Sequence record: MH285980
Length of the DNA stretch: 49,372 nt
From: Escherichia phage Eco_BIFF
Reading direction: 5' to 3' (one strand)
Shown here piece by piece: positions 25,866 through 46,707 of this stretch. Both the position numbers and the translations under genes were made by a program. Under the pieces are notes generated by a model. That model made no database searches and had not been told where the DNA came from. It worked only from the letters and a program-made list of their open reading frames with translations. Numbering within the stretch: position 1 is the first letter of the stretch; every line of letters begins with the position of its first letter.

Positions 25866-25909
25866 ATGTTAACCCGCTACGCGTCGATTGTTTTAACTAA
25901 AAATGCTAT
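25866..25909 (-). promoter_or_regulatory. promoter cassette: 20-bp element + 18-bp spacer + -10 TAACAT; upstream of primase
   Basis: Element ATAGCATTTTTAGTTAAAAC on minus strand; -10 sits in loop of hairpin followed by T-run; 27 nt before GTG 25832. Confidence 0.45.
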
Positions 25910-26345
25910 TGGTCGTTCCGATATCTTCCTTCTTCACGACGCGCATAAATTTCTTATTCTTGCATCGCTTCTCAAGGCATTTGCCGTTACCGTCAAACTT
26001 CAGGTCGAATCTAAGCCAGGCGGCGCGGAATCCTTTACACCCCTGACGGCGGTAAGCACGATGCGCAGCTTCAGCACCTTGCCACGAAATCATGTTGCGA
26101 TCTTTCCAGCCTTGCACTGTTTGATTGCTAACTTTCAAAGCCTTTGCGCAGGCCGCTGGACCGCCGTAATATTCAATAAGAGCGTCAAGTCGCGCTCGCA
26201 GTCCCGCTCGTGTTTCTTCTTTATGAATATAGAAGCCGCAGCGCTGTCGAGGCTTTTTGTCTTTACCGCGTCGCGTTCCGTTGTTACCATTAATGTGACG
26301 TTTATCGATTTCACCAGTTGACTCTGCGATACGTTGCATATTCAT
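25893..26345 (-). CDS. HTH DNA-binding protein (putative regulator)
   Basis: Start moved to ATG 26345 (RBS AGGAG 7 nt upstream); Cro/XRE-like helix-turn-helix segment LKVSNQTVQGW. Confidence 0.4.
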   Translation of the reverse strand: MNMQRIAESTGEIDKRHINGNNGTRRGKDKKPRQRCGFYIHKEETRAGLRARLDALIEYYGGPAACAKALKVSNQTVQGWKDRNMISWQGAEAAHRAYRRQGCKGFRAAWLRFDLKFDGNGKCLEKRCKNKKFMRVVKKEDIGTTNSIFS

Positions 26346-26357
26346 CTTAATTCTCCT

Positions 26358-26401
26358 GTAGCACTTTTTGCTAAAAACGTTTACTGTATGTCGTGTATTA
26401 T
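26358..26401 (+). promoter_or_regulatory. promoter cassette (-10 TATTAT); upstream of helicase
   Basis: GTAGCACTTTTTGCTAAAAA + 18 bp + TATTAT; 32 nt before helicase start. Confidence 0.5.
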
Positions 26402-26439
26402 AGCGTAAACGATACAACGATTCAAAGGATTAAATAGCT

Positions 26440-28458
26440 GTGACAATTAACATCAAGAAGCAAATCGCATTACTTGGCGAGGACTATATAAAACGCACTC
26501 AAGAACGATTTACTGTCGGTGAGGTCGTTCCTTATCCGTATCAGGTTGTTGCTTATGCCGAGATCGCAAAACGCCTGTCAAATTACGAGCATCCATTCTT
26601 TGTTAAAGCGTCAGTATCTGCGGGTAAAACAATCATATTCGCTATGGTGGCAAAGCAGTGTCAAAAAATGGGACTGAAAATGCTTGTGCTTGCGCGACAG
26701 GGTGAGATTGTCGATCAGGATAGTGAGGAGATTGACAACTTCGGGGTAACGAACTCCATATTCTCAGCATCGCTTGGAATCAAGTCCTGCTACTTCCCGA
26801 TCGTGGTTGGCTCAGAGGGTACTGTTGCAAATGGCCTCGACAATGAGTTAGCTGATTTCGTACCGCATGTAATTGGGATCGACGAATGTCACCAGGTGGA
26901 TTGGGAAGACCTTGCGCAAGCCATCGAAGGCAAGGAAACGATGGAGCAGATGAGGGGCGAGAAAGGGAAGGTTATCATGGACGGAGATATCCCCATGATT
27001 GGTAATGATGGAAAACCTTTACTTGGAACCAAGCGCAGTCAGTACACGATCGTAATCATGGAAATGATGCGGCGCTGTAAAAAGGTTCACGGTCACGATC
27101 TCAGAATATTTGGTATGACCGGATCTGAATTTCGGGGTGTAGTTCCTATTCTGGTAGAGAATCCTAAAGAGCTGGGATTCTGGCGTGAGCGAGTAACTGA
27201 TATCGACACAAACTATCTGATTGAGTTCGGATCTGTTGTGCCGACGATATTCGGTTCAACTGACGGCGTACACTACGATCTGGATAAGTTCAAGGCATCA
27301 AGCGAGGACGGCGTACAGGACTTTACAGAGAAAGATATGAAGGCAATGGAAGATGAGATCCTTCATGATAAATCTCTTACTCAGCGAATCATGCAAATGG
27401 TCGCCAAAAAGGCTGAAGAGCGTAACGCGGTTCTGATTACATGCGCCTGGGAACGCCACTGCAAAGAGGCGGCGGCAGCACTTCCTCCGGGAAGTACATA
27501 TGCAATTATTACTGGCGACACAGACAACAAAGCGCGCAAGAAGATTCTTGACGATGTGAGGGCTGGGAAAATTAAATACACCTTTCAGGTAATGGCGCTC
27601 ACTACTGGTGTTAACGTTCCAAATTGGGATTTCAGTGTCATACTCCGCAAGATAGGATCTCTCACTCTGTTGATTCAGCTTTTGGGTAGGGGTATGCGGC
27701 TGCTTAAATCATGGCAGGTTGCTGAAGGAATGGTTAAGCAAGACCATCTGGTATGGGATTTCGCTGGCACTATGGATGAGTTGGGCCAGCTTTATTTCGA
27801 TCCGATACTTGAGCAGGCGCAATTCCAGAAGCGTTTTGAAAACGGCAAAGACCCGAAAACATGCCCGAAATGCGGTTGCGTAAATAGCTTCTATGCTCGA
27901 CGATGCGTTAATGTCATTGATGGTGAACGTTGCGATTATTTCTGGACTTCTCAGATTTGCGAGGACCAGGTTGATGAACGTACCGGGAAAATCATTGTTA
28001 AAGGATGTGGTGCAGAGAATGACGTTGTTGCGCGAGTCTGTCGTTGTTGTGATGTTTCGCTTGTCGATCCTAACCTGAAGTTATCAGGTAAGGCGTACAC
28101 TAAGAATGACTGGTATGAAGTAAAGAATTTTGAGGTTACGCTAACCAAAAACCAGAAAGGCATAATATACAAATACACGCTGATTAACGACGATGGTGAT
28201 GAGTTCAAGGCGTATGAAAAATTCTTCCCCGAGTCTGACTCTAAGATTTGCGGTACGCTATGGAAAACTAAAGGTGTACTTCCTCATGTGTCAGATCCTA
28301 AAATGCGACGCTACTTTATCGGAATGAAGAACGCCATCAAGATTTTGCAATACTCACATCATATTGCTCACCCGGTGCGCGTAACTCATCGTCGCAACCA
28401 GAAGAAAGAAGATATTATCTCACGTAAAGACTTCGGTATGGAGGATATCCCGGAATGA
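26440..28458 (+). CDS. ATP-dependent DNA helicase (SF2) with C-terminal zinc ribbons
   Basis: Walker A SAGKT, DEAH-like GIDECHQ, CPKCG...C and CGAEN...CRCC ribbons; GTG start. Confidence 0.75.
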   Translation: MTINIKKQIALLGEDYIKRTQERFTVGEVVPYPYQVVAYAEIAKRLSNYEHPFFVKASVSAGKTIIFAMVAKQCQKMGLKMLVLARQGEIVDQDSEEIDNFGVTNSIFSASLGIKSCYFPIVVGSEGTVANGLDNELADFVPHVIGIDECHQVDWEDLAQAIEGKETMEQMRGEKGKVIMDGDIPMIGNDGKPLLGTKRSQYTIVIMEMMRRCKKVHGHDLRIFGMTGSEFRGVVPILVENPKELGFWRERVTDIDTNYLIEFGSVVPTIFGSTDGVHYDLDKFKASSEDGVQDFTEKDMKAMEDEILHDKSLTQRIMQMVAKKAEERNAVLITCAWERHCKEAAAALPPGSTYAIITGDTDNKARKKILDDVRAGKIKYTFQVMALTTGVNVPNWDFSVILRKIGSLTLLIQLLGRGMRLLKSWQVAEGMVKQDHLVWDFAGTMDELGQLYFDPILEQAQFQKRFENGKDPKTCPKCGCVNSFYARRCVNVIDGERCDYFWTSQICEDQVDERTGKIIVKGCGAENDVVARVCRCCDVSLVDPNLKLSGKAYTKNDWYEVKNFEVTLTKNQKGIIYKYTLINDDGDEFKAYEKFFPESDSKICGTLWKTKGVLPHVSDPKMRRYFIGMKNAIKILQYSHHIAHPVRVTHRRNQKKEDIISRKDFGMEDIPE

Positions 28459-28871
28459 TTACAGACAAAGGTGATTATTTAGAATTTTACGAGCGAGATC
28501 CAAGCGATACTCGAAAGGAGGATGCTCATCAAGTTGATTGCGTGTCATGGCTGAAATACAATTTCCCTCACCTTCTATTTTGGCACACTGTCAATGAAGG
28601 TGAAAAAACAATCACATCGGCACTAAGGGATGAACAAGCTGGATTACTTAAAGGCGTGTCAGACTTCGTTATCCTGATTGGTGTCAACTCACGATACCCG
28701 TTTGCAGCAATAGAACTCAAGCGGGTTAATAAGTCAGGCAAAGGAAAGGCGTCACCAGTCAGCGACAAGCAAAGGGAATTTCTCCGAAAGGTCCGGGAGC
28801 GCGGTGGATTCTCTGCCGTCGCATACGGATTCGGGCAATTCAAGATCGCAATTTACGAAATGATGAAATAG
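28455..28871 (+). CDS. VRR-NUC domain nuclease
   Basis: 138 aa with D...ELK PD-(D/E)XK-type motif (SDFVILIG...AIELK); overlaps helicase stop. Confidence 0.6.
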   Translation: MITDKGDYLEFYERDPSDTRKEDAHQVDCVSWLKYNFPHLLFWHTVNEGEKTITSALRDEQAGLLKGVSDFVILIGVNSRYPFAAIELKRVNKSGKGKASPVSDKQREFLRKVRERGGFSAVAYGFGQFKIAIYEMMK

Positions 28872-28911
28872 CACTTTTTGTTAAAACTGCCGGAATGGAA
28901 TCTGGCATAAT
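28868..28911 (+). promoter_or_regulatory. promoter cassette (-10 TGGCATAAT)
   Basis: ATAGCACTTTTTGTTAAAAC + 18 bp + CATAAT with TG extension; stop TAG of 28455..28871 lies inside the element. Confidence 0.5.
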
Positions 28912-29866: not shown

Positions 29867-30114
29867 TGAACGAGAAAATGATTCCTGTTAAGTTAACTGA
29901 TCAAGGTTTATGGCTACTTTATCGAGCTACGTGCTGCGAAATTATGGAGCGAAACGGATTGACTCAGGATGTTATTGGTTGCGATCTGTGGGATTTCACT
30001 AGTTCTCTTGATATGTCTTTCGGTGAGATAAAAAATGAACATATCGAGAATTGGCCTTCAATTATCCAGAAAGACGTAGAGGAACTTAAAGCAGATACGA
30101 TCGTTCAGCACTAA
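29863..30114 (+). CDS. hypothetical protein
   Basis: 83-aa ORF coupled to dam stop; RBS AGGAAAG. Confidence 0.45.
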   Translation: MMNEKMIPVKLTDQGLWLLYRATCCEIMERNGLTQDVIGCDLWDFTSSLDMSFGEIKNEHIENWPSIIQKDVEELKADTIVQH

Positions 30115-30148
30115 TTGCTAAAAATACCCGGCGAAAGTCGGGTATAGT
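30105..30148 (+). promoter_or_regulatory. promoter cassette (-10 TATAGT)
   Basis: TCAGCACTAATTGCTAAAAA + 18 bp + TATAGT; stop TAA of 29863..30114 lies inside; 26 nt before ATG 30181. Confidence 0.5.
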
Positions 30149-30180
30149 TATTTCATTGAGACAAGATGAGGAATCAAAAG

Positions 30181-30390
30181 ATGGCACGCATTAACGCAAA
30201 CTTTTTCAATATCGCTCAACAGTCAGCAAAAATGGCTGTTCATATCACCAACAAGAAAGGCGGTAACTTTGATTGGGATATTGCTATGAACTTCCTTAAA
30301 ATGGCTTATTACCTATGCTCAGTCAAAGATGTTGAGTGTTTTATTGAAAGCGTGGAGAAACTAACCAATGCTGATAAAAAAACAAGGTAA
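30181..30390 (+). CDS. hypothetical protein
   Basis: Start set at ATG 30181 (RBS GAGGAA); lies ~26 nt behind cassette 30105..30148. Confidence 0.35.
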   Translation: MARINANFFNIAQQSAKMAVHITNKKGGNFDWDIAMNFLKMAYYLCSVKDVECFIESVEKLTNADKKTR

Positions 30391-30872
30391 ACGAGAGGTT
30401 TGGGAGCACGCGAAGGAATGCGGAATATCAGACGATATAGCACTAATAGCAAAATATTTCGATATAAAGGATGTTAGCATTATATCAAACGGAAAGATTT
30501 CATTTATGGAAGATATGCCGAGAAAAATGCATAGAGTGCCAGCCACCCCGTCACTTGAGTTTTATCGTGAAGAAGGAAAGAGAATTGAGCGAGAACGAAA
30601 AAACGCAAAGAACAACAAGACTTCCAGGATTAAATATTAACTCAGATGGCTACCAGACAATATGGATCTGGAAAAGGCAGGTTAAGCAAATCCCTTTCTC
30701 TGACTGGCTACCACCTGACTTCGTTAACGTGCTGTGCACTATCGGGATCGAGAATGAGTTGCATATAGGTTATTACTCACCAGGTAGAAACAGCATGATG
30801 CTTGAGGTTGATGGAAAACTTGTTGAGTTTAAATCTTCAGACCTCGGATTCTGGTTAAAGGCTGTGGCATGA
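30368..30872 (+). pseudogene. hypothetical gene with apparent frame change at A6 run 30598..30603
   Basis: ORF 30368..30640 and ORF 30471..30872 overlap in different frames; removing one A from the A6 run fuses them into one ~167-aa reading frame. Confidence 0.3.
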
Positions 30873-30950: not shown

Positions 30951-32102
30951 ATGTCACAAGCTAAAATCACCACCGAGCAACTTATTGAAGAGCGCATGAG
31001 CGGCCTAACACTTCGCGAGATCGCGGAAAAATACGGCATGCACATTCGCACTGTTGAAGCGCGTCACGCCAAGCTGGCAAAAGAAGGTCATTTTCACGGT
31101 AACGAGCATGTTGCTAAAAACGTTCCCGAGGGATTCATGGTAAAAGGCACGTCGACGATGATTCGAGGTGATGGGACCGAGGTAGTGCGCTGGGTAAAGA
31201 CCGATCAGGACCGTGAGAAGATTGCGGCAATGATGGAAGCGGCTCGCATTGCATTCTGTGAAGACCTGCCGCGAGCAAATCCAACCAAGCTACTAACCTC
31301 GCAAGGGCTTACGACAGCTATGGGTAAGCTGGCACTCTATCCGGTATTCGATCTTCATATTGGCGCGCTTGCTCATAAGCATGAGTGCGGAGAGAACTAC
31401 TCTACCGATGTAGCGGAAAAAGTGCTGAGTGACTTCTTTAATTACGCGATCGATATTGCTCCGAACGCAGAGAAAGCTGTTCTGTTAATCGGCGGTGACT
31501 TCCTTCACTCTGACGGCCTTGATGCAGTTACCCCGGCAAGTGGTCACGTTCTTGATCAGGATTCACGATACGCAAAATTAGTGCATGTTGCGATTCGTTC
31601 GGTACGCCGAGCCATCGACAAAATGCTTATGAAACACAAAGAAGTCGAGGTCCAGGTTATCGAAGGGAACCACGATCAGTCTGGGATGATTTGGCTGAGA
31701 GCTGCAATGTCGGCATATTATGAAGACGAGCCGCGAGTATTCGTTGACGTTAGTCCTATGATTCTGCATAAGACTCGTTGGGGAAATACCTTGTTGGGAT
31801 ACACTCACGGTCACACTATGAAAAAGGCAGACACGCGACTTGCAGCAATGGCGGCAGATTTTCGATCAGACTTCGGCGAGAGCAAGTATGTGTATACTCA
31901 TAGTGGTCACTGGCATCACCAGACAATCACTGAGCACTCGCTTGGTATTGATGAGGTTCACGGTCAGTTAGGCGCGAAAGACGCATACGCAGCGCGCGGA
32001 GGGTGGCGCTCATATCGCCAGGCGGCTGTAATTGTTTACGATAAGCAGTTTGGGGAAATAGGTCGCTTCATCTATCGTCCAGAAATGACAGGATCGCACT
32101 AA
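30951..32102 (+). CDS. HTH-fused calcineurin-like metallophosphoesterase
   Basis: N-terminal HTH-like LTLREIAEKYGMHIRTVE; C-terminal motifs DLHIG, GGDFLH, GNHD, GHTH, GHWH. Confidence 0.6.
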   Translation: MSQAKITTEQLIEERMSGLTLREIAEKYGMHIRTVEARHAKLAKEGHFHGNEHVAKNVPEGFMVKGTSTMIRGDGTEVVRWVKTDQDREKIAAMMEAARIAFCEDLPRANPTKLLTSQGLTTAMGKLALYPVFDLHIGALAHKHECGENYSTDVAEKVLSDFFNYAIDIAPNAEKAVLLIGGDFLHSDGLDAVTPASGHVLDQDSRYAKLVHVAIRSVRRAIDKMLMKHKEVEVQVIEGNHDQSGMIWLRAAMSAYYEDEPRVFVDVSPMILHKTRWGNTLLGYTHGHTMKKADTRLAAMAADFRSDFGESKYVYTHSGHWHHQTITEHSLGIDEVHGQLGAKDAYAARGGWRSYRQAAVIVYDKQFGEIGRFIYRPEMTGSH

Positions 32103-32136
32103 TTGATAAAAACGCCCGAAGGGATTCGGGCATAGT
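32093..32136 (+). promoter_or_regulatory. promoter cassette (-10 CATAGT)
   Basis: ATCGCACTAATTGATAAAAA + 18 bp + CATAGT; stop TAA of 30951..32102 lies inside; 23 nt before ATG 32166. Confidence 0.45.
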
Positions 32137-32165: not shown

Positions 32166-32342
32166 ATGAAACGAGTTAAGTGCATCCGAAATGACTCCAA
32201 AACACTTCCATTCCGCGTAAATCAGATCTATAGTGTTGGTTATGATTTCGGTGGGGGATTGTTTGAGATTTACGACGGTCGAGGCTCAGTAATCCAGACT
32301 CCTCTGAACGGCAGCTATCTGGAATTTATTGCGATAGATTAA
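32166..32342 (+). CDS. small hypothetical protein (58 aa)
   Basis: RBS AAGAGG before ATG 32166; behind cassette 32093..32136. Confidence 0.35.
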   Translation: MKRVKCIRNDSKTLPFRVNQIYSVGYDFGGGLFEIYDGRGSVIQTPLNGSYLEFIAID

Positions 32343-33565: not shown

Positions 33566-33588
33566 GCCTCCTTTCTTTTATGCATCAG
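33553..33588. terminator. bidirectional terminator after lysis cassette
   Basis: AAGGAGGCGTAAGCCTCCTT flanked by A-run and TTTCTTTT. Confidence 0.55.
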
Positions 33589-33795
33589 CCCACATGTAAC
33601 TTTCGTTCGTGAGTTTCGCGTATTCGCGAACTTCAATCTCGCATGTGTCGCCGTGCATCTCAGCGACCTTCTTCTCGTTCGCTACCGCCGTTTCTTCAGT
33701 CCAACCATCAGTCTTGCTGTAAAGGGTAGGAATCTCACTGCTAGTGCCGTTAGAGTGGCTGTAAACGCGAACTACTAAAAATTTGTTAGCCATGA
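33578..33795 (-). CDS. hypothetical protein
   Basis: Start moved to ATG 33795 (RBS GAAGGAAAG); 24 nt behind cassette 33826..33869. Confidence 0.4.
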
Positions 33796-33825: not shown

Positions 33826-33869
33826 AATATACCCGATACGAGATCGGGTGTTTTAACAAAAAGTGCTAT
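33826..33869 (-). promoter_or_regulatory. promoter cassette (-10 TATATT)
   Basis: Minus-strand ATAGCACTTTTTGTTAAAAC + 18 bp + TATATT; 24 nt before ATG 33795. Confidence 0.5.
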
Positions 33870-34389: not shown

Positions 34390-35958
34390 TTAACCCATCA
34401 GTCGAGGATTGATGAAAACAATATCATCAATTCGGCAAGTGTAATTCATCTCTTCGAGCGTGATTAGAAGACTATCGATTCGCTCAGATACTTTCTGTTG
34501 ACCGTTGAACGGCGTAACGTTCCGGCACTTTGCAACAATACTATGAATAGGTGCGCGCCCCTTGTTCTTCTTTGCGATCTCAGTGATAACATCAATCAGC
34601 TTACGAGATTCAGCCTCATCACCAGCATACCCGGCAGCGCTGGCGGACGACAGATAAGTCCTGGAAAGCTCATTGAAAATCATGATCGCTTCCTGCATTG
34701 TTTCAAGGTCAATCTCACGGTTGGAACGGTTCGGTGATTCACCCTCCCAATTCTTGATCGTGTGGAGAACTGAAGCAATACGCAAAGCGTGCTTATCGAA
34801 CTTGCCGAGATGACCGCGAAGCATTGAGTGAGAGTATTTCCCCCCGGCGGCGAAATCAGGCTCCATCGCCTGGCGCGCAAGGTTTAATTCACGCATAGCA
34901 TTACGGCTAACAGAGAGAACAACGTTGTCCTCCTTCATGATGTTGTGCACGAGTCTGTAATATTTGCTAACCAGTCCGCGATCGACTTCTTTATACAGTG
35001 CATCACCATTTTCATCACAAAGAATACGAGTACCTAAAAGCGGTTCCTCTCGAACCAGGAGGAAACGCTCAGATACACCGATACCGCGCTGGCCTGCGTC
35101 CATGATACCCTTGATTGTTTCATCCTGAGCAATTACGCAGATTGAACCGACCGGACAAAGAGACAAGTTATTGTCCTGGTTTGAACGCGCGACCTCCATA
35201 TGGTTTTTATCCCACGCCTTAAGGATAAGCTCACTGTTAGATTTCTTATCTGAACCGCCATACGTAAGCCCGAGCAATGTATTGATTGCCGTTGCCTCGT
35301 CAGATATTACGGAAAAGTGACCTTGCACTGCCGCCACTTTCGCAAGACCTTCAGGTGTAGGATCTGATACCGCGAAAACAATATCAGCCATCTTCTTGAT
35401 CTTCTCTTCCAGTTTTTCTTTGTCCTCGTACAGAGCCGCCGTCGTGTTACCCTTCGGGTCGTTTTTGATTTCCTTCTCGACCTGACGTAGCTGACTGGTT
35501 AAACGGATACGTTCATTTTTACGCTCTTCATTCAGTCGCTGAATCTCCGCACGCATAGGCGTAATCGCCGCTGAGTTAATCGCTGATTTGCCTGTTGATG
35601 GTGGCTGACTGATTACCATGTAAAGCGCTGTCGGCTGTTCTTCTCCATGATATTGCACCCAAAACTTCCCGAGCATCGCGGCTGAGATGCAACCGATAAA
35701 ATGAGCATACGCGGATGAAACCGGGAACTGGACTGATTCAGCTTTTGCTTTTGCATATTCGAATACCAAGTTATCGCCACCTAACGAAATCAGAGGGAAC
35801 TTATCGTTTCCGCTGTTGATATCGATCGGATCTTGCCAAAAAGAAACTGAATCCCCGTAACTGTTTTCACGAATTGCGATCGCCACCGGATTCACTCCAG
35901 TGCTATTTGCGATCTCAATAATCTGTTGGTAATTCAGTTTTGGCTTAATATTAAACAT
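34390..35958 (-). CDS. P-loop NTPase of unknown function (coiled-coil between Walker A and Walker B)
   Basis: Start set at ATG 35958 (RBS AAGGAG); Walker A-like PPSTGKS, helical insert, Walker B-like FSVISDEAT; no family assignment possible. Confidence 0.45.
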   Translation of the reverse strand: MFNIKPKLNYQQIIEIANSTGVNPVAIAIRENSYGDSVSFWQDPIDINSGNDKFPLISLGGDNLVFEYAKAKAESVQFPVSSAYAHFIGCISAAMLGKFWVQYHGEEQPTALYMVISQPPSTGKSAINSAAITPMRAEIQRLNEERKNERIRLTSQLRQVEKEIKNDPKGNTTAALYEDKEKLEEKIKKMADIVFAVSDPTPEGLAKVAAVQGHFSVISDEATAINTLLGLTYGGSDKKSNSELILKAWDKNHMEVARSNQDNNLSLCPVGSICVIAQDETIKGIMDAGQRGIGVSERFLLVREEPLLGTRILCDENGDALYKEVDRGLVSKYYRLVHNIMKEDNVVLSVSRNAMRELNLARQAMEPDFAAGGKYSHSMLRGHLGKFDKHALRIASVLHTIKNWEGESPNRSNREIDLETMQEAIMIFNELSRTYLSSASAAGYAGDEAESRKLIDVITEIAKKNKGRAPIHSIVAKCRNVTPFNGQQKVSERIDSLLITLEEMNYTCRIDDIVFINPRLMG

Positions 35959-36503: not shown

Positions 36504-36916
36504 GAGTACAATCCTTCAAAACAAGTGCCGTCTGCAATGATGAATCCGACATCCGCACGAAATAAATTCCAGCGGCAACCATCCTCATCAAAGATGTAAC
36601 CAGCTACGCCACCGAGAGCGCGACCGCTTTCAACCTGGTAACGCTTGCCAACTTTGAATGATTTTTTCATTGGGTTGCGATGGTCAAGTCCGGTGCACTT
36701 GATCGTCTTTGTTTTCAACTCGGTGAACTTCGCGAAGAAGATTTCATCAGATCCGTGAATATGTAATTCATCATGCCTTTCAAGTTTTAAATACTTCCCG
36801 CATTTTAACTTTACTTCGCGAGTACCATCATAGCGCTCACGACCTTTGTACAGATTGTTTACTTCGAATCCTGTGATTTTGTCTGCGGAAGTGCATTTAA
36901 GTTTGATGGATTTCAT
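36500..36916 (-). CDS. hypothetical early protein
   Basis: 138-aa ORF with RBS CAGGAG, 30 nt behind cassette 36953..36996. Confidence 0.45.
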   Translation of the reverse strand: MKSIKLKCTSADKITGFEVNNLYKGRERYDGTREVKLKCGKYLKLERHDELHIHGSDEIFFAKFTELKTKTIKCTGLDHRNPMKKSFKVGKRYQVESGRALGGVAGYIFDEDGCRWNLFRADVGFIIADGTCFEGLYS

Positions 36917-36952: not shown

Positions 36953-36996
36953 ACTTTATCAAATGACCTTACGGCAATATTAACAAATCGTGCTAT
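36953..36996 (-). promoter_or_regulatory. promoter cassette (-10 TGATAAAGT)
   Basis: Minus-strand ATAGCACGATTTGTTAATAT + 18 bp + TAAAGT inside hairpin AAGGTCA/TGACCTT; 30 nt before ATG 36916. Confidence 0.5.
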
Positions 36997-37212: not shown

Positions 37213-37437
37213 TTAGCTCCATGAATTAATGTAAATCGAGTTAGCCTCAAGCGTTGCGCGAACATCCGCATCTGTTGCATTTACTAAGCGCGTTCCTGGC
37301 GTGCTGCCAATAACGTTATTACCGTTCTGAGCCTTAGTTAACGTCATTGAAATAAAACCGGAAGACTTATCCATTTTGATAACTACACGTCCTTTCGCGT
37401 TCAGATGCTTGATGATATTCTCAACTTTAATGCTCAT
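37213..37437 (-). CDS. hypothetical early protein
   Basis: 74-aa ORF with RBS AAGGAA behind cassette 37471..37515. Confidence 0.45.
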   Translation of the reverse strand: MSIKVENIIKHLNAKGRVVIKMDKSSGFISMTLTKAQNGNNVIGSTPGTRLVNATDADVRATLEANSIYINSWS

Positions 37438-37470: not shown

Positions 37471-37515
37471 AATATACCTTACTCACTATTTATTGTCTTT
37501 AGCAATTAGTGCTAT
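37471..37515 (-). promoter_or_regulatory. promoter cassette (-10 TATATT, 19-bp spacer)
   Basis: Minus-strand ATAGCACTAATTGCTAAAGA; hairpin GTGAGTAA/TTACTCAC; 27 nt before ATG 37437. Confidence 0.45.
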
Positions 37516-37652: not shown

Positions 37653-37654
37653 AA

Positions 37655-37991: not shown

Positions 37992-38192
37992 TCAGGATAG
38001 CTTTCGCGCTTCATCAATGATAACAGGTTCGAGACGCTCAAGTCGAACGCGGAACGTGTTCATAAATCCTTCGTTATTCTTCAGTAGCTCGAAGGCGTCT
38101 GTAGCTTCAATGGCGCTATTTCCCATGTAGACAATTACTTTTTTCTGAGTCTTTCGTGAGATCGCAACCACGCGGTAGATATTATCACTCAT
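37992..38192 (-). CDS. hypothetical early protein
   Basis: Start set at ATG 38192 (RBS AAGGAGG); overlaps upstream stop. Confidence 0.4.
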   Translation of the reverse strand: MSDNIYRVVAISRKTQKKVIVYMGNSAIEATDAFELLKNNEGFMNTFRVRLERLEPVIIDEARKLS

Positions 38193-38556
38193 ACAATGCC
38201 TCCTTAACACGATCCGCAATGCAGGAGTTTACGGTGATTGAGTAGTTAGCCACGCCCCATAATGCAATATTGCCAAGCTCGGTACGCATTGATGGATTGT
38301 TAAGCTGGATTATCGTTTCTCCAGTATCTTTATCTACGAAGCGAGACACGCCCAAATGGTCCACCACGCGCGTTACGCGGTTAACGCACTCCATTGCATC
38401 ACTTACGCCGTAATAAGCGCTCAGAGCGGCTCTCACGGCCTTCTCTTGCTTGTTGTAAATCTTTCGCGCAATGTTCTCGATCGCAATCTGCTCTTTTTCG
38501 TCAGTATGTATTGCTGTGCTGGCTGAGAAGTCCAGGTCAGTGAACTGCTTAAGCAT
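38185..38556 (-). CDS. hypothetical early protein
   Basis: 123-aa ORF, RBS GAGGAAAG, 25 nt behind cassette 38588..38631. Confidence 0.45.
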   Translation of the reverse strand: MLKQFTDLDFSASTAIHTDEKEQIAIENIARKIYNKQEKAVRAALSAYYGVSDAMECVNRVTRVVDHLGVSRFVDKDTGETIIQLNNPSMRTELGNIALWGVANYSITVNSCIADRVKEALYE

Positions 38557-38587: not shown

Positions 38588-38631
38588 ACTATACCCCGAC
38601 TACCTTCGGGGCGTTTAGCAATTCGTGCTAT
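38588..38631 (-). promoter_or_regulatory. promoter cassette (-10 TATAGT)
   Basis: Minus-strand ATAGCACGAATTGCTAAACG + 18 bp + TATAGT after hairpin CCCCGA/TCGGGG; 25 nt before ATG 38556. Confidence 0.5.
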
Positions 38632-38966
38632 TAATCAATATCGAACTCAGCGGCATACGCTTTCTTGAAGCCAGCTTCACGCATGGTACGCTTGCTTATT
38701 TTGCGCGGGAATTTGTACTGGCTGTTAGGCTTAACCCACCAGAAGCATGCAGTCTCGCGGACGATTTCATATTTACCGTAACGGGTGAAGATGTCACGTT
38801 CCGCGTCAGGCTGGTTAACACAGGTCAGGAATTTAGCCGCTTTGTCTTCAGTTTTGATTTCTTCCCATACGAAGGAATCCATGCCGTTAACCTTGCAAGC
38901 TACCATGATGTACTCAACGCCGTTTTCGATTTTGATGATTTCGTTACCGCGATTTTCGTATTTCAT
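38631..38966 (-). CDS. hypothetical early protein
   Basis: 111-aa ORF behind cassette 39005..39048; stop TAA abuts TAGCAC of the next element. Confidence 0.45.
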   Translation of the reverse strand: MKYENRGNEIIKIENGVEYIMVACKVNGMDSFVWEEIKTEDKAAKFLTCVNQPDAERDIFTRYGKYEIVRETACFWWVKPNSQYKFPRKISKRTMREAGFKKAYAAEFDID

Positions 38967-39004: not shown

Positions 39005-39048
39005 ATTATGCCAAATCGCACCGATCGAGTTTTAACAAAAAGTGCTAT
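39005..39048 (-). promoter_or_regulatory. promoter cassette (-10 TGGCATAAT)
   Basis: Minus-strand ATAGCACTTTTTGTTAAAAC + 18 bp + CATAAT; stop TAA of 39032..39736 lies inside; 32 nt before ATG 38966. Confidence 0.5.
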
Positions 39049-39736
39049 TTGCGATCGCTTTGAAAAATCCACGCGGCGACAGGGATCGTATCAGCTTAGT
39101 TTTGGCAGACTTGCCGCCCAGCTTGTTTTGCTGTGCAGAGTACCCGTCAGGCAGGTTTACAGGTTTTCTCTCCGGCATAACGAAGTCGTCAGAGGTCCAC
39201 AGACAAGTCTTCTTCGGGTAAGCATCGCGCGGCGCGATATACATCGGGAACCAGGGATGCGCGTCATTCTCAGGAAGATAGCCGCCATACTCCCAGGGAT
39301 TGAAGGAGTGATTTGGTTTTCTCCATGCAGATGACAGGACGCTCACCGGATTCTCAATTATGTAAGTCACGCCCATGCTATCGCCAATGTTCGCGGCAAT
39401 ACGGGCAGTAGCGACAGCTTTCTCCTGGAATAGCGGATCACGTTCACGCTTGCTGGCAAAATGGCGAGCACCACTAACAGCAAGGTCAGTGCATGGATGG
39501 AAGGCCATAATAAAATCCGGTTTGTCATACACACCCGCGATCGTATCACGTTCGAACTTCTCATCAATGAAGACGTTCACATACTCAATGTTCGGATGCT
39601 CTACCCTGGCGTTGTACTTTGCGTAATCTCCGTGATCGGCTCCGTCAAAGTTGAAGCACATCACCTTATGACCTTGCTTTGCCAGTTCATGGCCAGCAAG
39701 ACCGGAACCGTCGAATAGTGACCAAATTAATTTCAT
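39032..39736 (-). CDS. compact DNA (cytosine-5) methyltransferase-like protein
   Basis: C5-MTase-like motifs in order: FDGSGLAG, PC (HPCTDLAVSGA), ENP, C-terminal AIANS; only 234 aa, little room for a target-recognition domain. Confidence 0.45.
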   Translation of the reverse strand: MKLIWSLFDGSGLAGHELAKQGHKVMCFNFDGADHGDYAKYNARVEHPNIEYVNVFIDEKFERDTIAGVYDKPDFIMAFHPCTDLAVSGARHFASKRERDPLFQEKAVATARIAANIGDSMGVTYIIENPVSVLSSAWRKPNHSFNPWEYGGYLPENDAHPWFPMYIAPRDAYPKKTCLWTSDDFVMPERKPVNLPDGYSAQQNKLGGKSAKTKLIRSLSPRGFFKAIANSTFC

Positions 39737-39770: not shown

Positions 39771-39814
39771 ACTATACCCTGTCAACCTGGTCGAGTCGTT
39801 AGCAAAAATGCTAT
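39771..39814 (-). promoter_or_regulatory. promoter cassette (-10 TATAGT); upstream of C5-MTase-like gene
   Basis: Minus-strand ATAGCATTTTTGCTAAC (N4 variant); motif-to-hexamer distance conserved; 28 nt before ATG 39736. Confidence 0.45.
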
Positions 39815-39999
39815 TCCAATAATTGCTCATTATTCCATCAATACTGGAATAGGTGGAATAATTTTGATTGTTATTGATTGCGAATGATGAAACGTGATTA
39901 TTGCATGGTGTGCAACAGTTGGTTGATTTGTTGCTGAGATTGCAATGATTGTGAGAGGGAGGATTTAGTGTTGCCCTGTTCGCCTGGTAGTCATCTCCA

Positions 40000-40019
40000 T
40001 TTTTAGCAAAAAGTGCTAT
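40000..40019 (-). repeat. copy of the 20-bp element without a properly spaced -10
   Basis: Minus-strand ATAGCACTTTTTGCTAAAAA at the edge of the AT-rich divergent region; hexamer at the cassette position is GAACAG. Confidence 0.35.
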
Positions 40020-40939: not shown

Positions 40940-41188
40940 GTGATGACCATGAGCAAGATTAAGTACGACGCTCTGAAAGGTGTATTAATGCAACTAAATC
41001 CAGGCGAAGCATTTCAGCTTAACCCCGAGACTTTTGGATTCAATGGTGATTATCGTACAACCTTCGAATTTGTCCGGTATGTAAAGAAGGAGTTTGGATT
41101 CGAAGTTATTCACGCAGGTCTTGTCAGTGGCATTCAGACGTTCATCTTTAAGCCAAATGAGATTCGCTGCTTCACTTTGATGAAATAG
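40940..41188 (+). CDS. hypothetical early protein
   Basis: 82-aa ORF; stop TAG lies inside element 41185..41204. Confidence 0.45.
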   Translation: MMTMSKIKYDALKGVLMQLNPGEAFQLNPETFGFNGDYRTTFEFVRYVKKEFGFEVIHAGLVSGIQTFIFKPNEIRCFTLMK

Positions 41189-41228
41189 CACTTTTTGTTA
41201 AAACCGGATCGGGATAACCTGGTATAGT
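41185..41228 (+). promoter_or_regulatory. promoter cassette (-10 TGGTATAGT)
   Basis: ATAGCACTTTTTGTTAAAAC + 18 bp + TATAGT; 25 nt before ATG 41260. Confidence 0.55.
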
Positions 41229-41259: not shown

Positions 41260-41748
41260 ATGAAAATCAAATTACTTTGCACTGGCGGTTACAAAGGCTT
41301 TACCCGCGACCTTGAAGCGGACCCTATCGTGGTTGATGCGGTTAAGTGCGATTCCAGCACTGGAGGCTACCGCGTTAAGGTTGACGATCTTATTAAAGCT
41401 GGCGTGTACGATCTTGACTACGGACTTTCTGTTAGCCCTGTATTTGGTCCGGCTGACTTCAACGAGAAAGACGGAACGATGTTCTTTTTTGAATGGGAAG
41501 TTCAAGCGAACGTCAAGCCGCGCAAGGTTCGACTTCTCAGTAATGGCGGCTACCCTATGCGTCCAGGTTATGAGAATCGCACGTTCCCGGTTATCGTTGA
41601 CTTTGAAGAAATCACCGAGCACTTAGCTTATATCAACGGTGAACAGCTTAATGCTGTTGGATTCGTGGGAGGTATGAATCAAGAGGCGCTATGCTTCTTC
41701 CATTGTAAAGCCGATCCGTTCGATATTGAGTGTGAGTTAGTCTACTAA
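41260..41748 (+). CDS. hypothetical early protein
   Basis: 162-aa ORF 25 nt behind cassette -10; stop TAA inside next element. Confidence 0.45.
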   Translation: MKIKLLCTGGYKGFTRDLEADPIVVDAVKCDSSTGGYRVKVDDLIKAGVYDLDYGLSVSPVFGPADFNEKDGTMFFFEWEVQANVKPRKVRLLSNGGYPMRPGYENRTFPVIVDFEEITEHLAYINGEQLNAVGFVGGMNQEALCFFHCKADPFDIECELVY

Positions 41749-41789
41749 GCACGAATTGTTAAAAGGGGATTTGTCCTGAATGGTATAAT
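41746..41789 (+). promoter_or_regulatory. promoter cassette (-10 TGGTATAAT)
   Basis: TAAGCACGAATTGTTAAAAG + 18 bp + TATAAT inside hairpin GGGGATT/AATCCCC; 24 nt before ATG 41820. Confidence 0.55.
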
Positions 41790-41819: not shown

Positions 41820-42326
41820 ATGTTAAAATTAGAAGACGTAAAATTCCCGATTAAGTTTATCAGCCTGGGTTGCGGTGAAATTACATTCGCCAGTGAAGAT
41901 AAGGGCAAATGGGCCACTGATGAGGTGTCTCAGCTTAAGTTGGATTGGTTTATCGCCAGACATAACGAAGTGAATAAAGAAAATTCACCAAACAAGGACT
42001 ACCACTACATTATGAGTGGCGATCTGGGTGCGAAAGGCATGTTTGATGGCTGGAAGATTGAACGCTCCATATTTCACTTCGCAAAGCCAGAAATTAAGCC
42101 TATGCTGCAATGCACTCAGATCGAGAACATGCCATTGAGCGCGACGCTAAAAGGAGTGCAGCTTGATGATAAATCATGGCTTGAAATCACCGCCACGCCG
42201 AAAGCTATTGAAGTGCACGACGATATCGTCACTCTTCTATTGCATTATGGCGGCTTCAAACACAAAACGGTATCAGGTGAAATCAGTATTAAGCGCGGAA
42301 CGCTTGTACGCTATGAGGTGAAATAA
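41820..42326 (+). CDS. hypothetical early protein
   Basis: 168-aa ORF, RBS AAAGGAAA, behind cassette 41746..41789. Confidence 0.45.
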   Translation: MLKLEDVKFPIKFISLGCGEITFASEDKGKWATDEVSQLKLDWFIARHNEVNKENSPNKDYHYIMSGDLGAKGMFDGWKIERSIFHFAKPEIKPMLQCTQIENMPLSATLKGVQLDDKSWLEITATPKAIEVHDDIVTLLLHYGGFKHKTVSGEISIKRGTLVRYEVK

Positions 42327-42475
42327 TGACGGCGTGGATTTTAATTATCTTGATGAGTACCGGGCCGGATCACGTATACATGGAGAGCCAACAATCATGC
42401 AATAAGGCACGGGAAGTTATCGCAGAGAATAAGCCGTTCGGGTACGAAGTTAAAACAATGTGCGTTAAACGATAG
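42326..42475 (+). CDS. small hydrophobic protein (49 aa)
   Basis: ATG overlaps upstream stop (TAATG); N-terminal hydrophobic segment; stop TAG inside element 42472..42491. Confidence 0.3.
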   Translation: MTAWILIILMSTGPDHVYMESQQSCNKAREVIAENKPFGYEVKTMCVKR

Positions 42476-42515
42476 CACGAATTGCTAAACCTTCCGCAAG
42501 GCCATTTGATATAGT
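42472..42515 (+). promoter_or_regulatory. promoter cassette (-10 TGATATAGT)
   Basis: ATAGCACGAATTGCTAAACC + 18 bp + TATAGT in loop of hairpin AAGGCCA/TGGCCTT. Confidence 0.55.
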
Positions 42516-42578: not shown

Positions 42579-42812
42579 ATGATTATCGTCAACAAAGAAA
42601 CTGGAGAGGTAATGGAGAATTGCATCATCATAGAAGAATCACCAAAACCAAAGCACAAGCATGATACTTACAGAAAGGTCACTTGCAAGGCTCCGGGGTG
42701 TGGTAATGCATACGATGCAAAAGTGTCCGATCTAAATCGCGGGTGGGGATTAACTTGCAGCAAGTCGTGTGCCGCCGTCGTTCGTGAATTAAAGAAGAAA
42801 GGGAATATATAA
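42579..42812 (+). CDS. small zinc-ribbon-like protein
   Basis: 77 aa with paired Cys motifs (CKAPGC ... CSKSC). Confidence 0.4.
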   Translation: MIIVNKETGEVMENCIIIEESPKPKHKHDTYRKVTCKAPGCGNAYDAKVSDLNRGWGLTCSKSCAAVVRELKKKGNI

Positions 42813-44088: not shown

Positions 44089-44288
44089 CAGCAGAAGATG
44101 CAGCACGCGACGCAGTGGAAGGAATGCGCCCAAATACCTCCAGAATCTCCCACTACTACAAATTTGATGTGTCGGCAGTGCAATTGGTCCACGAAATTTT
44201 AAGGCTCCCACAAGTCGATTCAGCGCGCGTGGTGACGTGCTTAAAAAATTATTTTTGCATCACTGTTAAAACGAATAGCACGAATTGA
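44073..44288 (+). CDS. hypothetical early protein
   Basis: 71-aa ORF with RBS AAGGGTG; stop TGA inside element 44275..44294. Confidence 0.4.
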   Translation: MATIMTAEDAARDAVEGMRPNTSRISHYYKFDVSAVQLVHEILRLPQVDSARVVTCLKNYFCITVKTNSTN

Positions 44289-44318
44289 TAAAACCTATCA
44301 AGGGGAATGCGCTATGAT
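44275..44318 (+). promoter_or_regulatory. promoter cassette (-10 TATGAT)
   Basis: ATAGCACGAATTGATAAAAC + 18 bp + TATGAT in hairpin GGGGAAT/ATTCCCC; 24 nt before ATG 44349. Confidence 0.5.
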
Positions 44319-44348: not shown

Positions 44349-44795
44349 ATGAAACACTTAATTTGCATTGAAACGCCTAACGATGAATACACTCTGCACG
44401 GCATTGGAATGTTCAAAGGTCACTACATGACAGCGAGCATTTACGATGCTCGTCGCGGCGATGGCGATCTGATGATTACGTCAAGAGAAGTAAATCCGTA
44501 CATTATGCAGAATCTTGGCGATAACGAATATATGGCCTACGGCTGCAACGCGGTGTACAAGCACATTAAGATCCGCAAGCATGTTGTGCGTGCATTCAAG
44601 AAAATTGCAATGAAATACTGGAAGATGAGCAAGAAGGATGCCGGACGCTGGGCGCGTAACGTTGCAGATTCATACTTCTACCGTAACGGTGAGTCCTGCT
44701 ACTTCCTGGTCGATGAAATTATGGAAAACTACGGCGGCGACTTCAGTCAGTGTAGCTTTGACGCTTGGGCTGACTATGAGATCAGTTGCTGGTAA
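44349..44795 (+). CDS. hypothetical early protein
   Basis: Start set at ATG 44349 (RBS GAGGAAG); track start 44307 lies inside the promoter cassette. Confidence 0.45.
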   Translation: MKHLICIETPNDEYTLHGIGMFKGHYMTASIYDARRGDGDLMITSREVNPYIMQNLGDNEYMAYGCNAVYKHIKIRKHVVRAFKKIAMKYWKMSKKDAGRWARNVADSYFYRNGESCYFLVDEIMENYGGDFSQCSFDAWADYEISCW

Positions 44796-44838
44796 TAGCA
44801 CTAATTGCTAAAACTTGCTCAAGGGTATTTGATAGAAT
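44795..44838 (+). promoter_or_regulatory. promoter cassette (-10 TGATAGAAT)
   Basis: ATAGCACTAATTGCTAAAAC + 18 bp + TAGAAT in hairpin AAGGGTA/TGCCCTT; 33 nt before ATG 44878. Confidence 0.55.
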
Positions 44839-44877: not shown

Positions 44878-45081
44878 ATGAAAACTATTACCGGAATGAG
44901 CAACGAAACGAGAACGCAGATCGTTAGCATGCTAATCGGCATGGCTGACGATATTCAGAATAGCCATGTCGTTATTGATTCATGCAATCAGACTCGTGAG
45001 AGTAAATTTGAATCATCCGGCTACAAAATTGTTGAAGAAGAATTAACCATCAAAATCATTCGCGTACAGGAGAAAGCATAA
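44878..45081 (+). CDS. hypothetical early protein
   Basis: 67-aa ORF with RBS AGAGGAA behind cassette 44795..44838. Confidence 0.45.
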   Translation: MKTITGMSNETRTQIVSMLIGMADDIQNSHVVIDSCNQTRESKFESSGYKIVEEELTIKIIRVQEKA

Positions 45082-45611
45082 TGGATAAAATCACAATTTG
45101 GGGTCAGAAAATCAACCTGTTTCTCGGCACGCGCCGCGTAGCAATCTTTGACTTTGACGGGACGCTGAGTGAAGGATCTGGTCGACTTCACCTGTTACCG
45201 ACAAAAGATTTGCACTTGACTGAAAGCTGGTCTGAGTTTAACCGTGCGGCAATATTTGACAACCCTATCCAAAGCACGATCGACGTGATGAACTCTATGT
45301 TTGCCGCTGGATATCATGTAATAATTTTAACCGGGCGAAGTGATGAGGTGCGTTACGCATCTGAGTTATGGCTTAAGCATCACGGCGCTCGATATGATTA
45401 CTTAGTCATGCGACCGCACACCGACAACCGTAAAGACACGGTAATGAAAGAAGAGGCAGTGCGCGCGATCGGCATTGATAACATTCTGGCGGCTTGGGAT
45501 GACTCAGTGAATATAATAAAAAAATTCAGAGAGCTAGGAATAACCACGTATCAGGTTTGTGAATATGCCTGTAATAGTCGAGAGGATTTAAAAAGTCATG
45601 GTGTCGATTGA
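45081..45611 (+). CDS. HAD-superfamily phosphatase
   Basis: HAD motif I FDFDGTL and downstream motifs (ILTGRSD, W-DD); RBS GGAGAAAG. Confidence 0.6.
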   Translation: MDKITIWGQKINLFLGTRRVAIFDFDGTLSEGSGRLHLLPTKDLHLTESWSEFNRAAIFDNPIQSTIDVMNSMFAAGYHVIILTGRSDEVRYASELWLKHHGARYDYLVMRPHTDNRKDTVMKEEAVRAIGIDNILAAWDDSVNIIKKFRELGITTYQVCEYACNSREDLKSHGVD

Positions 45612-46092
45612 TAACAAATCAAGGGTAAGAGAGTTATTTACTTATTCTGACGGCGTTCTGTATTGGAAAGCTAAATCATCTAAATACAGTAGAGCTAAAA
45701 TAGGAGGAGCGGCAGGAAGCAAGGATAAAGACGGATACATAATAATCAGAGTAAGAAGCGAAACTAGAGGCGCTCACAGGCTTGTATGGATATACCATAA
45801 TGGTAAGATACCGAATGGAATGGAGGTAGACCATATGGATGGAGACATAAAAAACAATAGAATAGAAAACCTAAGATTGGTAACGAGAACCATAAATAAC
45901 AGGAATCAAAAAAAGAGATTTGATAACACAACCGGAGTATCCGGTGTAACTTTCATGAAAGATAGAGGAAAGTATAGGGCGCAAGTTAGAAATAAGAAAC
46001 TCGGGCAATTCGACACAATAGAAGAGGCCGCTCAAGCCGTAAATTATGAGCGTGATAGATTAGGTTTATTCACAAAAAGACACGGAGTATAA
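45598..46092 (+). CDS. HNH homing endonuclease (HNH + AP2-like domain)
   Basis: EVDHMDGDIKNNRIENLRLVTR motif plus AP2-like GKYRAQVRNKKLGQF; AGA/ATA-rich codons; paralogue of 36018..36503. Confidence 0.7.
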   Translation: MVSIDNKSRVRELFTYSDGVLYWKAKSSKYSRAKIGGAAGSKDKDGYIIIRVRSETRGAHRLVWIYHNGKIPNGMEVDHMDGDIKNNRIENLRLVTRTINNRNQKKRFDNTTGVSGVTFMKDRGKYRAQVRNKKLGQFDTIEEAAQAVNYERDRLGLFTKRHGV

Positions 46093-46094
46093 AC

Positions 46095-46667
46095 ATGAAA
46101 ACAGCTATCATTTTAAACGGAGCACCTGGCGCAGGAAAAGACACTATCGGATGCATCCTGGCTGACACTTACGATCATGTAGCGCTACGCAGCTTCAAAG
46201 CGCCAATGTTTGAGATTGCCAGAGCAATCCTGGGTGAGGCTAATTTCGAGTATTTCATGTTCTTGTATGAGGACCGTCGCTATAAAGAAGAGCCAGCATC
46301 AATCCTGAACGGTAAAAGCCCGCGCCAGTTTATGATCTGGATTAGCGAGGAAGTCATCAAGCCGCAGTTCGGAAATCGCTTCTTCGGTATGCGAGCGGAA
46401 AGCAAGGTGAAAGAGTCGCACTCCCTTTCGGTATTTACTGATGGTGGATTCAAAGACGAAATCTTGCAGATGATTGAAGGTGATATCCAAGTCAAGCTAT
46501 GTCGAATACATCGCAACGGTTGCAACTTCGATAATGACAGTCGAGACTATATCTACCTGGACGATATGATCGGGGTTAACGGCTATCAGGAGTGTGACTT
46601 CTTCTCTGTCGAAGGTCATCCAGAAATTACCGCTCATCACATAGCCGCCACGTTCATCAATAAATAG
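46095..46667 (+). CDS. P-loop nucleotide kinase (dNMP-kinase-like)
   Basis: Walker A GAPGAGKDT at N-terminus, 190 aa; RBS GGAG; stop TAG inside element 46664..46683. Confidence 0.55.
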   Translation: MKTAIILNGAPGAGKDTIGCILADTYDHVALRSFKAPMFEIARAILGEANFEYFMFLYEDRRYKEEPASILNGKSPRQFMIWISEEVIKPQFGNRFFGMRAESKVKESHSLSVFTDGGFKDEILQMIEGDIQVKLCRIHRNGCNFDNDSRDYIYLDDMIGVNGYQECDFFSVEGHPEITAHHIAATFINK

Positions 46668-46707
46668 CACGAATTGCTAAAACGTCGGTGGGGTGATTTG
46701 ATATAGT
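46664..46707 (+). promoter_or_regulatory. promoter cassette (-10 TGATATAGT)
   Basis: ATAGCACGAATTGCTAAAAC + 18 bp + TATAGT; 26 nt before ATG 46740. Confidence 0.55.

Follow-up and report, generated by a model that had tools for sequence, protein, structure and literature searches.

A repeated marbox-like element at a fixed distance from -10 hexamers in the T1-like phage Eco_BIFF: candidate class II promoters for host MarA, SoxS or Rob

Sequence record MH285980, a stretch of 49,372 nucleotides from Escherichia phage Eco_BIFF that was analyzed as a whole (hereafter the window), is the genome, complete or almost so, of a T1-like phage (Drexlerviridae). Its early region is ~90% identical to those of Escherichia and Shigella Tunavirinae, its capsid protein is 98-99.7% identical to the capsid proteins of ADB-2 and Shfl1, and the phage is virulent, with no repressor or integrase seen in the window. 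A first-pass annotation had noted 18 promoter-like cassettes in the early and replication region, each consisting of a 20 bp element (the box) followed at a fixed distance by a -10 hexamer. All 18 were recovered, together with one weak cassette at 30437-30480, giving 19 in 25866-46707; two more lie outside this region, for a total of 21 (Table 1). The limits of the region are exact, its outermost hexamers lying at 25866-25871(-) and 46702-46707(+). The earlier idea that each gene has a promoter of its own was overstated: ~19 cassettes serve ~47 genes, in units of one to seven genes.

The box had been written as ATAGCAC-N5-TTGYTAAAAC, a pattern that has no real match in the window because its gap length is wrong. 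Corrected, the element reads ATAGCAC-N3-TTG(C/T)TAAAAC, with which the core proposed alongside it, TAGCA-N5-TG(C/T)TA, agrees. The 15 central bases of the box coincide with the marbox consensus GCAHWWWWTGYYAAA, and a motif scan found the box to be extremely enriched over shuffled controls: there are 12 perfect and 8 one-mismatch sites for the 15-mer in the window, compared with 0.09 and 1.37 after shuffling with dinucleotide content approximately maintained. When 64 distinct cassettes, taken from five Drexlerviridae, are combined in a logo, whose conservation is partly a consequence of site selection, GCAC (positions 4-7) and TAAA (positions 15-18) are near-invariant; beyond the selection consensus, ATA at positions 1-3, C at 7, TT at 11-12, T at 15 and AC at 19-20 are conserved as well. 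What is conserved is thus not the partial palindrome in the core: the flanks lack symmetry (position 1 is A although a dyad calls for T, and T at position 11 faces C at 7), and position 14 is T in 26 of the 64 sites (TGTTA). The dyad symmetry through conserved positions that marks a dimeric Cro/cI-like operator is absent, and a palindrome or dimer reading was rejected on account of the asymmetry of the conserved flanks.

A -10-like hexamer stands at an offset of exactly 18 bp in 14 of 20 boxes in the window (at most one mismatch) and in no more than two at any other offset, against a background of ~2% per position. The same offset occurs in 65 of 89 boxes from the five Drexlerviridae, with spacers of free sequence. 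The 18 bp interval of the first-pass annotation held, as did 19 bp at 37471-37515; at 35988-36031, for which 19 bp had also been given, the interval is 18 or 19 bp depending on the alignment. The hexamers are of the sigma70 type (consensus TAtaaT) and often extended: G occupies -14 in 19 of the 21 window cassettes, with a full TG in 11, and in 52 of the 64 Drexlerviridae cassettes, many of them with TG. No -35 hexamer lies at the proper distance, as previously noted, the best TTGACA match at 16-18 bp being 1-4 of six bases and mostly 2-3; the TTGYTA of the box is 22 bp from the -10, and the TTGYTAAA end is 20 bp from the hexamer. The base 7 nt past the hexamer is A in 18 of 21 cassettes, and this conserved A was taken as the predicted +1. 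Start sites are predicted at 26408, 28918, 30155, 32143, 41235, 41796, 42522, 44325, 44845 and 46714 on the + strand and at 25859, 33819, 35981, 36946, 37464, 38581, 38998 and 39764 on the - strand. Counted from the predicted +1, the box extends from about -50 to -31 with its center at about -40.5, in agreement with the class II activator geometry suggested earlier. Every box points forward relative to its own hexamer (21/21) and, with the sole exception of 9549-9592(-), relative to the downstream gene. In 16 of the 21 cassettes it overlaps or abuts the upstream stop codon.

The marbox consensus for E. coli MarA is 5'-GCAHWWWWTGYYAAA-3' (PMC6900184), in which A and B sites are contacted by the pair of helix-turn-helix (HTH) motifs in SoxS and MarA (PMC9638938). 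The invariant parts of the phage box, GCAC and TAAA, are these A and B sites, and the box matches the marbox consensus (A site GCAC, B site YAAA). In the variant box at 39771-39815, the conserved distance reported earlier was found again, running from the B site to TATAGT; the interval from box to hexamer counts as 19 bp there. Class II promoters under MarA, SoxS, Rob or RamA have a forward box centered at about -41 that overlaps the -35 position, have no recognizable -35, and use sigma70 (PMC12052159, PMC10268841, PMC8811837, PMC9638938). The cassettes display all of these published features when positions are counted from the predicted +1.

The micF promoter of E. coli K-12 combines the box ACAGCACTGAATGTCAAAAC, an 18 bp interval and the hexamer TAGAAT, with an annotated RNA start 8 nt past the hexamer. 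Its box shares the AAAAC end of the phage box, and cassette 44795-44838 shares its TAGAAT; the box of the E. coli mar promoter, ATGCCACGTTTTGCTAAATC, is identical to the phage box at 16 of 20 positions. The micF box has one mismatch to the consensus and the mar and fumC boxes have two to three. As a comparator for spacing only micF is clean, fumC (three mismatches and an ambiguous -10) and inaA (no forward match at up to three mismatches) being unusable. Work by Martin et al. in 1999 reportedly gave 18-19 bp for class II promoters. In common with class II promoters such as micF, including RamA-micF in Klebsiella, the cassettes have an asymmetric 20 bp box with GCAC and (C/T)AAA, in forward orientation and in place of a -35; they also share with micF the 18 bp from box to sigma70 -10 and the center near -41. 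They differ in their phage setting and their number (~20 copies in 49 kb), and in having a hairpin inside the promoter and a conserved leader after +1 (see below); binding of a host regulator to them is predicted. Their boxes are also more uniform and, since those of fumC and inaA are so degenerate, closer to the consensus than typical host sites.

Every cassette contains a hairpin whose sequence varies (for example 42492-42521, 44815-44844, 36947-36976(-), 30125-30142 and 32113-32131), and between the end of the box and about +14 the sequence folds far better than its shuffled versions (z averaging -2.5 over 64 cassettes, 70% of which lie below -1.5). Two arrangements occur: a G+C-rich hairpin within the spacer that ends at the -10, and a hairpin in fixed register that holds the -10 in its loop and whose 3' arm ends at -1. 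At least six of seven pairs form in the fixed register in 18 of 76 cassettes, compared with 0-3 in shifted registers. The pairs covary, G-T pairs included (GGCCA/TGGCC, GGTCA/TGACC, GGGTA/TGCCC, ACGTC/GGCGT), and the GenBank record of T1 annotates cassette hairpins as rho-independent terminators. Because transcripts arriving from upstream contain the hairpin and those started at the cassette do not, its most likely role is to insulate or process neighboring units, probably by terminating or processing the upstream transcripts. A leader, (C)ATCGAAACGA, stands at the predicted +1 of most cassettes in all Drexlerviridae examined (for example 41234-41245, 46713-46724 and 32142-32152), and is also found after a canonical promoter (20993-21003). 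Another conserved motif, CAACCAATCAGGAG, is found ahead of several start codons (at 9595-9606, 42544-42557 and 44867-44877).

The element itself has been published, which answers a question that the first-pass annotation had left open. A 2024 re-annotation of phage TLS describes a 21 nt direct repeat, aaATAGCACnnnTTGnTAAAA, in 21 copies and present in T1, Rtp and Rogue1 too; it is intergenic, oriented with transcription and located ~76 nt ahead of start codons, its role was left open among stoperator, enhancer site and UP element, and only three sigma70 promoters were found (PMC11447400). This repeat and the Eco_BIFF box are the same element: the window cassettes carry the consensus aaATAGCACnnnTTGnTAAAA, are intergenic, and follow the direction of transcription, with ~44 plus 17-39 nt from the start of the box to the ATG. 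The TLS paper contains no 18 bp link to a -10, no marbox identity, and no occurrence outside Drexlerviridae (PMC11447400); the marbox match, the class II geometry and the occurrence outside the family are what is new here. In a literature search whose coverage left out most subscription journals, no paper was found that links the repeat to the marbox, to a fixed -10 distance, or to rob, marA or soxS; the matches to 'Rob' were to the author Rob Lavigne, not the regulator. The upstream stop codon is often inside the box, as the TAG of ATAGCAC (28869-28871, 41186-41188, 42473-42475, 46665-46667) or the TAA of the box variant CTAATTG (30112-30114, 32100-32102), and such stop codons may explain the A/T/G sub-types of the TLS repeat.

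Cassettes are widespread among phages of this family. T1 has 22 boxes, 15 of them with a -10 at 18 bp; Klebsiella phage KP36 and Rtp have 16 each (14 with a -10 at 18 bp in both), and Sadiya has 15 (eight with a -10). An Aeromonas Chaseviridae control had one box and no -10 at this distance. A scan of IMG/VR for the box followed by 18 bp and TATART returned more than 120 loci, almost all on contigs of Drexlerviridae size. Outside the family, seven cassettes are present in the podovirus C130_2 (Hungariovirus), five in the podovirus IME_EC2 (Murrayvirus), and two, in tandem, in the T4-like Klebsiella phage KP15 (record 10042-10449), where one is annotated as a 'putative middle promoter'. The KP15 cassettes drive small genes of no known function, and the two genes behind them had no homologue in the reference phages compared. 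By tblastn, C130_2 and IME_EC2 share with the window only exonuclease VIII, Erf, primase, helicase, VRR-NUC and methylases, and the set common to T1, KP36, Rtp, Sadiya, C130_2 and IME_EC2 (KP15 being outside this comparison) consists of replication and recombination enzymes and includes no transcription factor. Because the compared phages share no such factor, their simplest common factor is the enterobacterial host, in which MarA, SoxS, Rob and RamA are all readers of the marbox. This distribution suggests that cassettes travel with genes between phage families. The cassettes of KP15 and of C130_2 and IME_EC2, two phages with P22-like virion genes, include the hairpin and the ATCGAAACGA leader.

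The first-pass annotation had called for a dedicated activator, phage- or host-encoded, and had named two phage proteins as candidate binders. Of these options, a host-encoded activator is favored, because of the perfect marbox match and the same 18 bp spacing as in micF; the phage candidates found no support. The product of 25893..26345(-) is a 150 aa protein with a weak, single Cro/YdaS-like HTH (23 bits, below the Pfam cut-off), and that of 30951..32102(+) is a 383 aa protein with a weak metallophosphatase-like domain and a weak generic N-terminal HTH. Neither is of the two-HTH AraC type, and neither has a homologue in C130_2 or IME_EC2, which carry cassettes. A tblastn search of the phage with MarA, SoxS and the N-terminal domain of Rob gave nothing below E = 0.6, and the Pfam families HTH_AraC, HTH_18, MotA and AsiA had no match among the early proteins and the two candidates. 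Matches to the Pfam family 'Serglycin' were artefacts of the GS linkers that joined the concatenated early proteins.

Together, these sequence comparisons indicate that the cassettes are probably sigma70 class II promoters activated by host MarA, SoxS or Rob, each with a terminator-like hairpin: class II marbox promoters, that is, in an unexpected place. A host regulator of the AraC family (Rob, MarA or SoxS in E. coli; also RamA in Klebsiella and Salmonella) would bind the box as a single monomer, contact the C-terminal domain of the RNA polymerase alpha subunit (alpha-CTD) and region 4 of sigma70, and recruit the polymerase to the -10 located 18 bp downstream, so that transcription would start at the conserved A, 7 nt past the hexamer. 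The cassette is packed against the upstream stop codon, and its hairpin would end or process incoming transcripts.

Several points weigh against this interpretation. Our literature search found no binding, footprint or transcription-start report for any T1-like phage, and nothing in print that connects these phages with rob, marA or soxS. In the absence of stress, MarA and SoxS are scarce. Rob, the only one of the regulators present under such conditions, is then for the most part aggregated (PMC10268841). Bile salts, fatty acids and dipyridyl affect how active Rob is. Some 20 sites per genome, multiplied by replication, would place a large demand on a factor whose supply is uncertain, and cassettes with G at -14 or a TG-extended -10 may fire without an activator. 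The T1-like replication module shared with C130_2 and IME_EC2 makes co-transfer of an undetected, fast-evolving phage factor possible, and a new fold able to read the same site would escape both BLAST and Pfam.

Such a factor could be a phage-encoded, non-AraC activator (the Cro-like product of 25893..26345 or an unannotated small protein) that is expressed from a few canonical sigma70 promoters and replaces -35 recognition, in a delayed-early switch like that of T4 MotA/AsiA. Promoters that could express it first are present before 21016 (TTGACT-16-TATAAT), before 40421 (TTGACA-17-CACAAT) and before the Cro-like gene; moreover, conservation of the Cro-like protein extends to all four Drexlerviridae subfamilies examined, and most early proteins are without known function. 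We nonetheless consider this unlikely, given that the compared phages have no transcription factor in common, that both HTH candidates are missing from the two podoviruses, that a T4-like phage, KP15, carries two cassettes, that the box is asymmetric, and that a chance match to all 15 specified marbox positions, in this orientation and at 18 bp, is improbable. T4 middle promoters do resemble the cassettes in having an activator box that replaces the -35 upstream of a good -10. The MotA box, TGCTTtA, is centered at about -30, 11-13 bp from the -10. The Eco_BIFF box differs from it in both sequence and position, no MotA box lies at 11-13 bp, and Pfam detected no MotA or AsiA homologue among the early proteins.

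It is decidedly improbable that the boxes act mostly in a negative way, as stoperator-like roadblocks, as operators or as parts of terminators, and that the -10 hexamers downstream belong to unrelated constitutive promoters. Six boxes do overlap canonical or late promoters or come after them, positions at which a bound protein should repress, hairpins annotated in T1 as terminators lie inside cassettes, and the stoperator idea was raised by the TLS authors (PMC11447400). A roadblock, however, needs neither a fixed 18 bp, which 65 of 89 boxes have, nor a single orientation; the cassettes lack a -35 and would thus need help to fire; and the phage is virulent, with no repressor or integrase seen. 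The stoperators of mycobacteriophage L5 are likewise numerous, asymmetric, intergenic and oriented with transcription, but they are repressor sites of a temperate phage without a -10 at a fixed distance, whereas the boxes of the virulent Eco_BIFF are coupled to promoters. A protein-free, UP-like or -35-substitute element that RNA polymerase itself reads at extended -10 promoters seems hardly probable at all. The frequent G at -14 and TG extension would suit it, as would the A-rich 3' end of the box, and UP elements are an option named in the TLS paper (PMC11447400). Yet G4, C5, C7 and G13 vary little or not at all, and G/C positions of this kind (GCAC, TTG) do not resemble an UP element; the box spans -50 to -31, not -60 to -40; TTGYTA, 22 bp from the -10, is too far away for sigma region 4; and the occurrence of boxes in either orientation on other promoters fits a transcription-factor site, not a polymerase element.

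Six boxes lie beyond 25866-46707, and six in the window have no -10 at 18 bp or are wrongly oriented, five of these being on other promoters (Table 1). The tail-chaperone gene 9614 has an extended -10 promoter, TGTAAAAT (9540-47, +), of which the box at 9573-9592 occupies +20 to +39. The helicase cassette 26358..26401 overlaps the divergent canonical promoter of the Cro-like gene, TTGAAT(26425-20)-17-TATAAT(26402-397), with its box at +14 to +33 of that promoter. Only one recognized extended -10 late promoter, TGtAGAAT at ~13561, has no box. The placement of boxes on other promoters is common to the window and T1, and is not found in KP36, Rtp or Sadiya. MarA is known to repress pbpG, and MarA and SoxS to repress rob; as in those cases, phage boxes in either orientation overlie the spacer, the -10 or the start site, although the parallel is drawn from position only. 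Because marboxes that overlap core promoters are known to repress, a regulator bound at these boxes may turn down the capsid, terminase, tail and regulator promoters. The 9549-9592(-) cassette stands back-to-back with TGTAAAAT and is conserved in T1 (18833(-)), and Rtp has a forward cassette at the same intergenic position; it could drive an antisense RNA or work through occlusion of the other promoter.

A broader model, which is speculation and which we hold to be rather doubtful, is that the T1 family and at least two other enterobacterial phage lineages hard-wire most of their transcription to host mar/sox/rob. The box would then serve as activator site for ~20 early units and as operator for the capsid, terminase, tail and regulator genes, and the pool of free regulator would act as an early-to-late timer, being titrated by replicating phage DNA or decaying after host shut-off (MarA and SoxS are short-lived). 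Phage development would in that event be coupled to the bile, fatty acids, antibiotics and oxidative stress that the host senses.

The T1-like phages, a classic group found everywhere, matter as contaminants of laboratories and also as candidates for therapy. If the cassettes are class II marbox promoters, most promoters of the T1-like family would be explained at once, and a virulent phage family would have gene expression dependent on the regulators of the host's antibiotic and stress responses. Salicylate, paraquat, bile salts, and mar or ram resistance mutations would then alter phage susceptibility, which bears on phage-antibiotic combinations. The genome would also offer ~20 natural near-consensus marboxes at one geometry for studies of class II activation, and compact terminator-plus-promoter units that are apparently mobile between unrelated phages.

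Table 1. Cassettes, and boxes on other promoters or without a -10, in the Eco_BIFF window (intervals are from box to -10 hexamer; start sites are predicted)
Feature	Coordinates	Strand	Description
Cassette	25866..25909	-	Box 25890-25909 ATAGCATTTTTAGTTAAAAC, 18 bp, TAACAT 25866-71; before primase gene 24897..25832; hairpin bracketing -10, with T-run
Cassette	26358..26401	+	Box 26358-77, 18 bp, TATTAT 26396-401; before helicase gene 26440..28458
Cassette	28868..28911	+	Perfect box, 18 bp, TGgCATAAT; TAG of box is stop of 28455..28871
Cassette	30105..30148	+	Box TCAGCACTAATTGCTAAAAA, 18 bp, TATAGT; before 30166..30390; spacer hairpin CCCGGCgaaaGTCGGG
Weak, uncertain cassette	30437..30480	+	Two-mismatch box, 18 bp, TAGCAT; annotated start of next gene lies inside
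Cassette	32093..32136	+	Box ATCGCACTAATTGATAAAAA, 18 bp, CATAGT; before 32166..32342 and lysis genes; TAA of box is stop of 30951..32102
Cassette	33826..33869	-	Perfect box, 18 bp, TATATT; before 33578..33793
Cassette	35988..36031	-	Degenerate box ATAGCATTTTTTGAAAAACG, 18 or 19 bp by alignment, TATCAT; before DUF3987 gene 34390..35961
Cassette	36953..36996	-	Box ATAGCACGATTTGTTAATAT, 18 bp, TGaTAAAGT; before 36500..36916; hairpin brackets -10
Cassette	37471..37515	-	Perfect box, 19 bp, TATATT; before 37213..37437
Cassette	38588..38631	-	Box ATAGCACGAATTGCTAAACG, 18 bp, TATAGT; before 38185..38556
Cassette	39005..39048	-	Perfect box, 18 bp, TGgCATAAT; before 38631..38966
Variant cassette	39771..39815	-	One-base-deleted box ATAGCA-TTTTTGCTAACGA, TATAGT; before Dcm-like gene 39032..39736
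Cassette	41185..41228	+	Perfect box, 18 bp, TGgTATAGT; predicted +1 A 41235; before 41260..41748
Cassette	41746..41789	+	Box TAAGCACGAATTGTTAAAAG, 18 bp, TGgTATAAT; before 41820..42326
Cassette	42472..42515	+	Box, 18 bp, TGaTATAGT; hairpin AAGGCCA/TGGCCTT brackets -10; before 42579..42812
Cassette	44275..44318	+	Box ATAGCACGAATTGATAAAAC, 18 bp, TATGAT; before ATG ~44349 (gene to 44795)
Cassette	44795..44838	+	Perfect box, 18 bp, TGaTAGAAT (micF hexamer); before 44878..45081
Cassette	46664..46707	+	Box, 18 bp, TGaTATAGT; before 46740..46949
Outlying weak cassette	22081..22123	+	Box 22081-22100(+) ACTGCACAAATAGCTAAACA, 17 bp, TGtTATAAT; before Erf-like gene 22155..22802
Antisense cassette	9549..9592	-	Perfect box 9573-9592(-), 18 bp, TGaTAGGAT; points into major tail protein gene
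Capsid promoter TTGACG-16-TATTAT	5804..5831	+	Before major capsid gene 5883; perfect reversed box 5809-5828(-) fills spacer (operator-like position); terminator 5834-5866
Late promoter TGTATAAT	15739-46	+	Two-mismatch box 15761-15780(+) at ~+9 to +28; just ahead of tail-tip gene 15783
Late fiber promoter TGaTAAAAT	24848-24840	-	Box 24817-24836(+), reversed relative to tail-fiber gene, over predicted start site
Late promoter TGgTAAAAT	48487-95	+	Small terminase gene; overlaps perfect forward box 48494-48513(+); no -10 at 18 bp
Orphan perfect box	40000..40019	-	No -10; AT-rich non-coding, between divergent early gene blocks; conserved in T1 at 103(-)

The early blocks are flanked by two AT-rich non-coding regions, 20492-21016 and 39737-40420, which contain the canonical promoters before 21016 and 40421 and also the orphan box. 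They also harbor another repeat, (T)GTGTAACAG(G/T)TGTCTAT, with related TAGACA/TGTCAC motifs and TATATA runs; they could be origin or immediate-early control regions, and are possible targets of the Cro-like protein. Two database records carry odd host names that may reflect contamination or mis-assignment: the capsid protein of 'Campylobacter phage A123' is 73% identical to that of Eco_BIFF, and 'Stutzerimonas phage vB_SstS_STP9' shares 95.6% identity with Escherichia phage C130_2.

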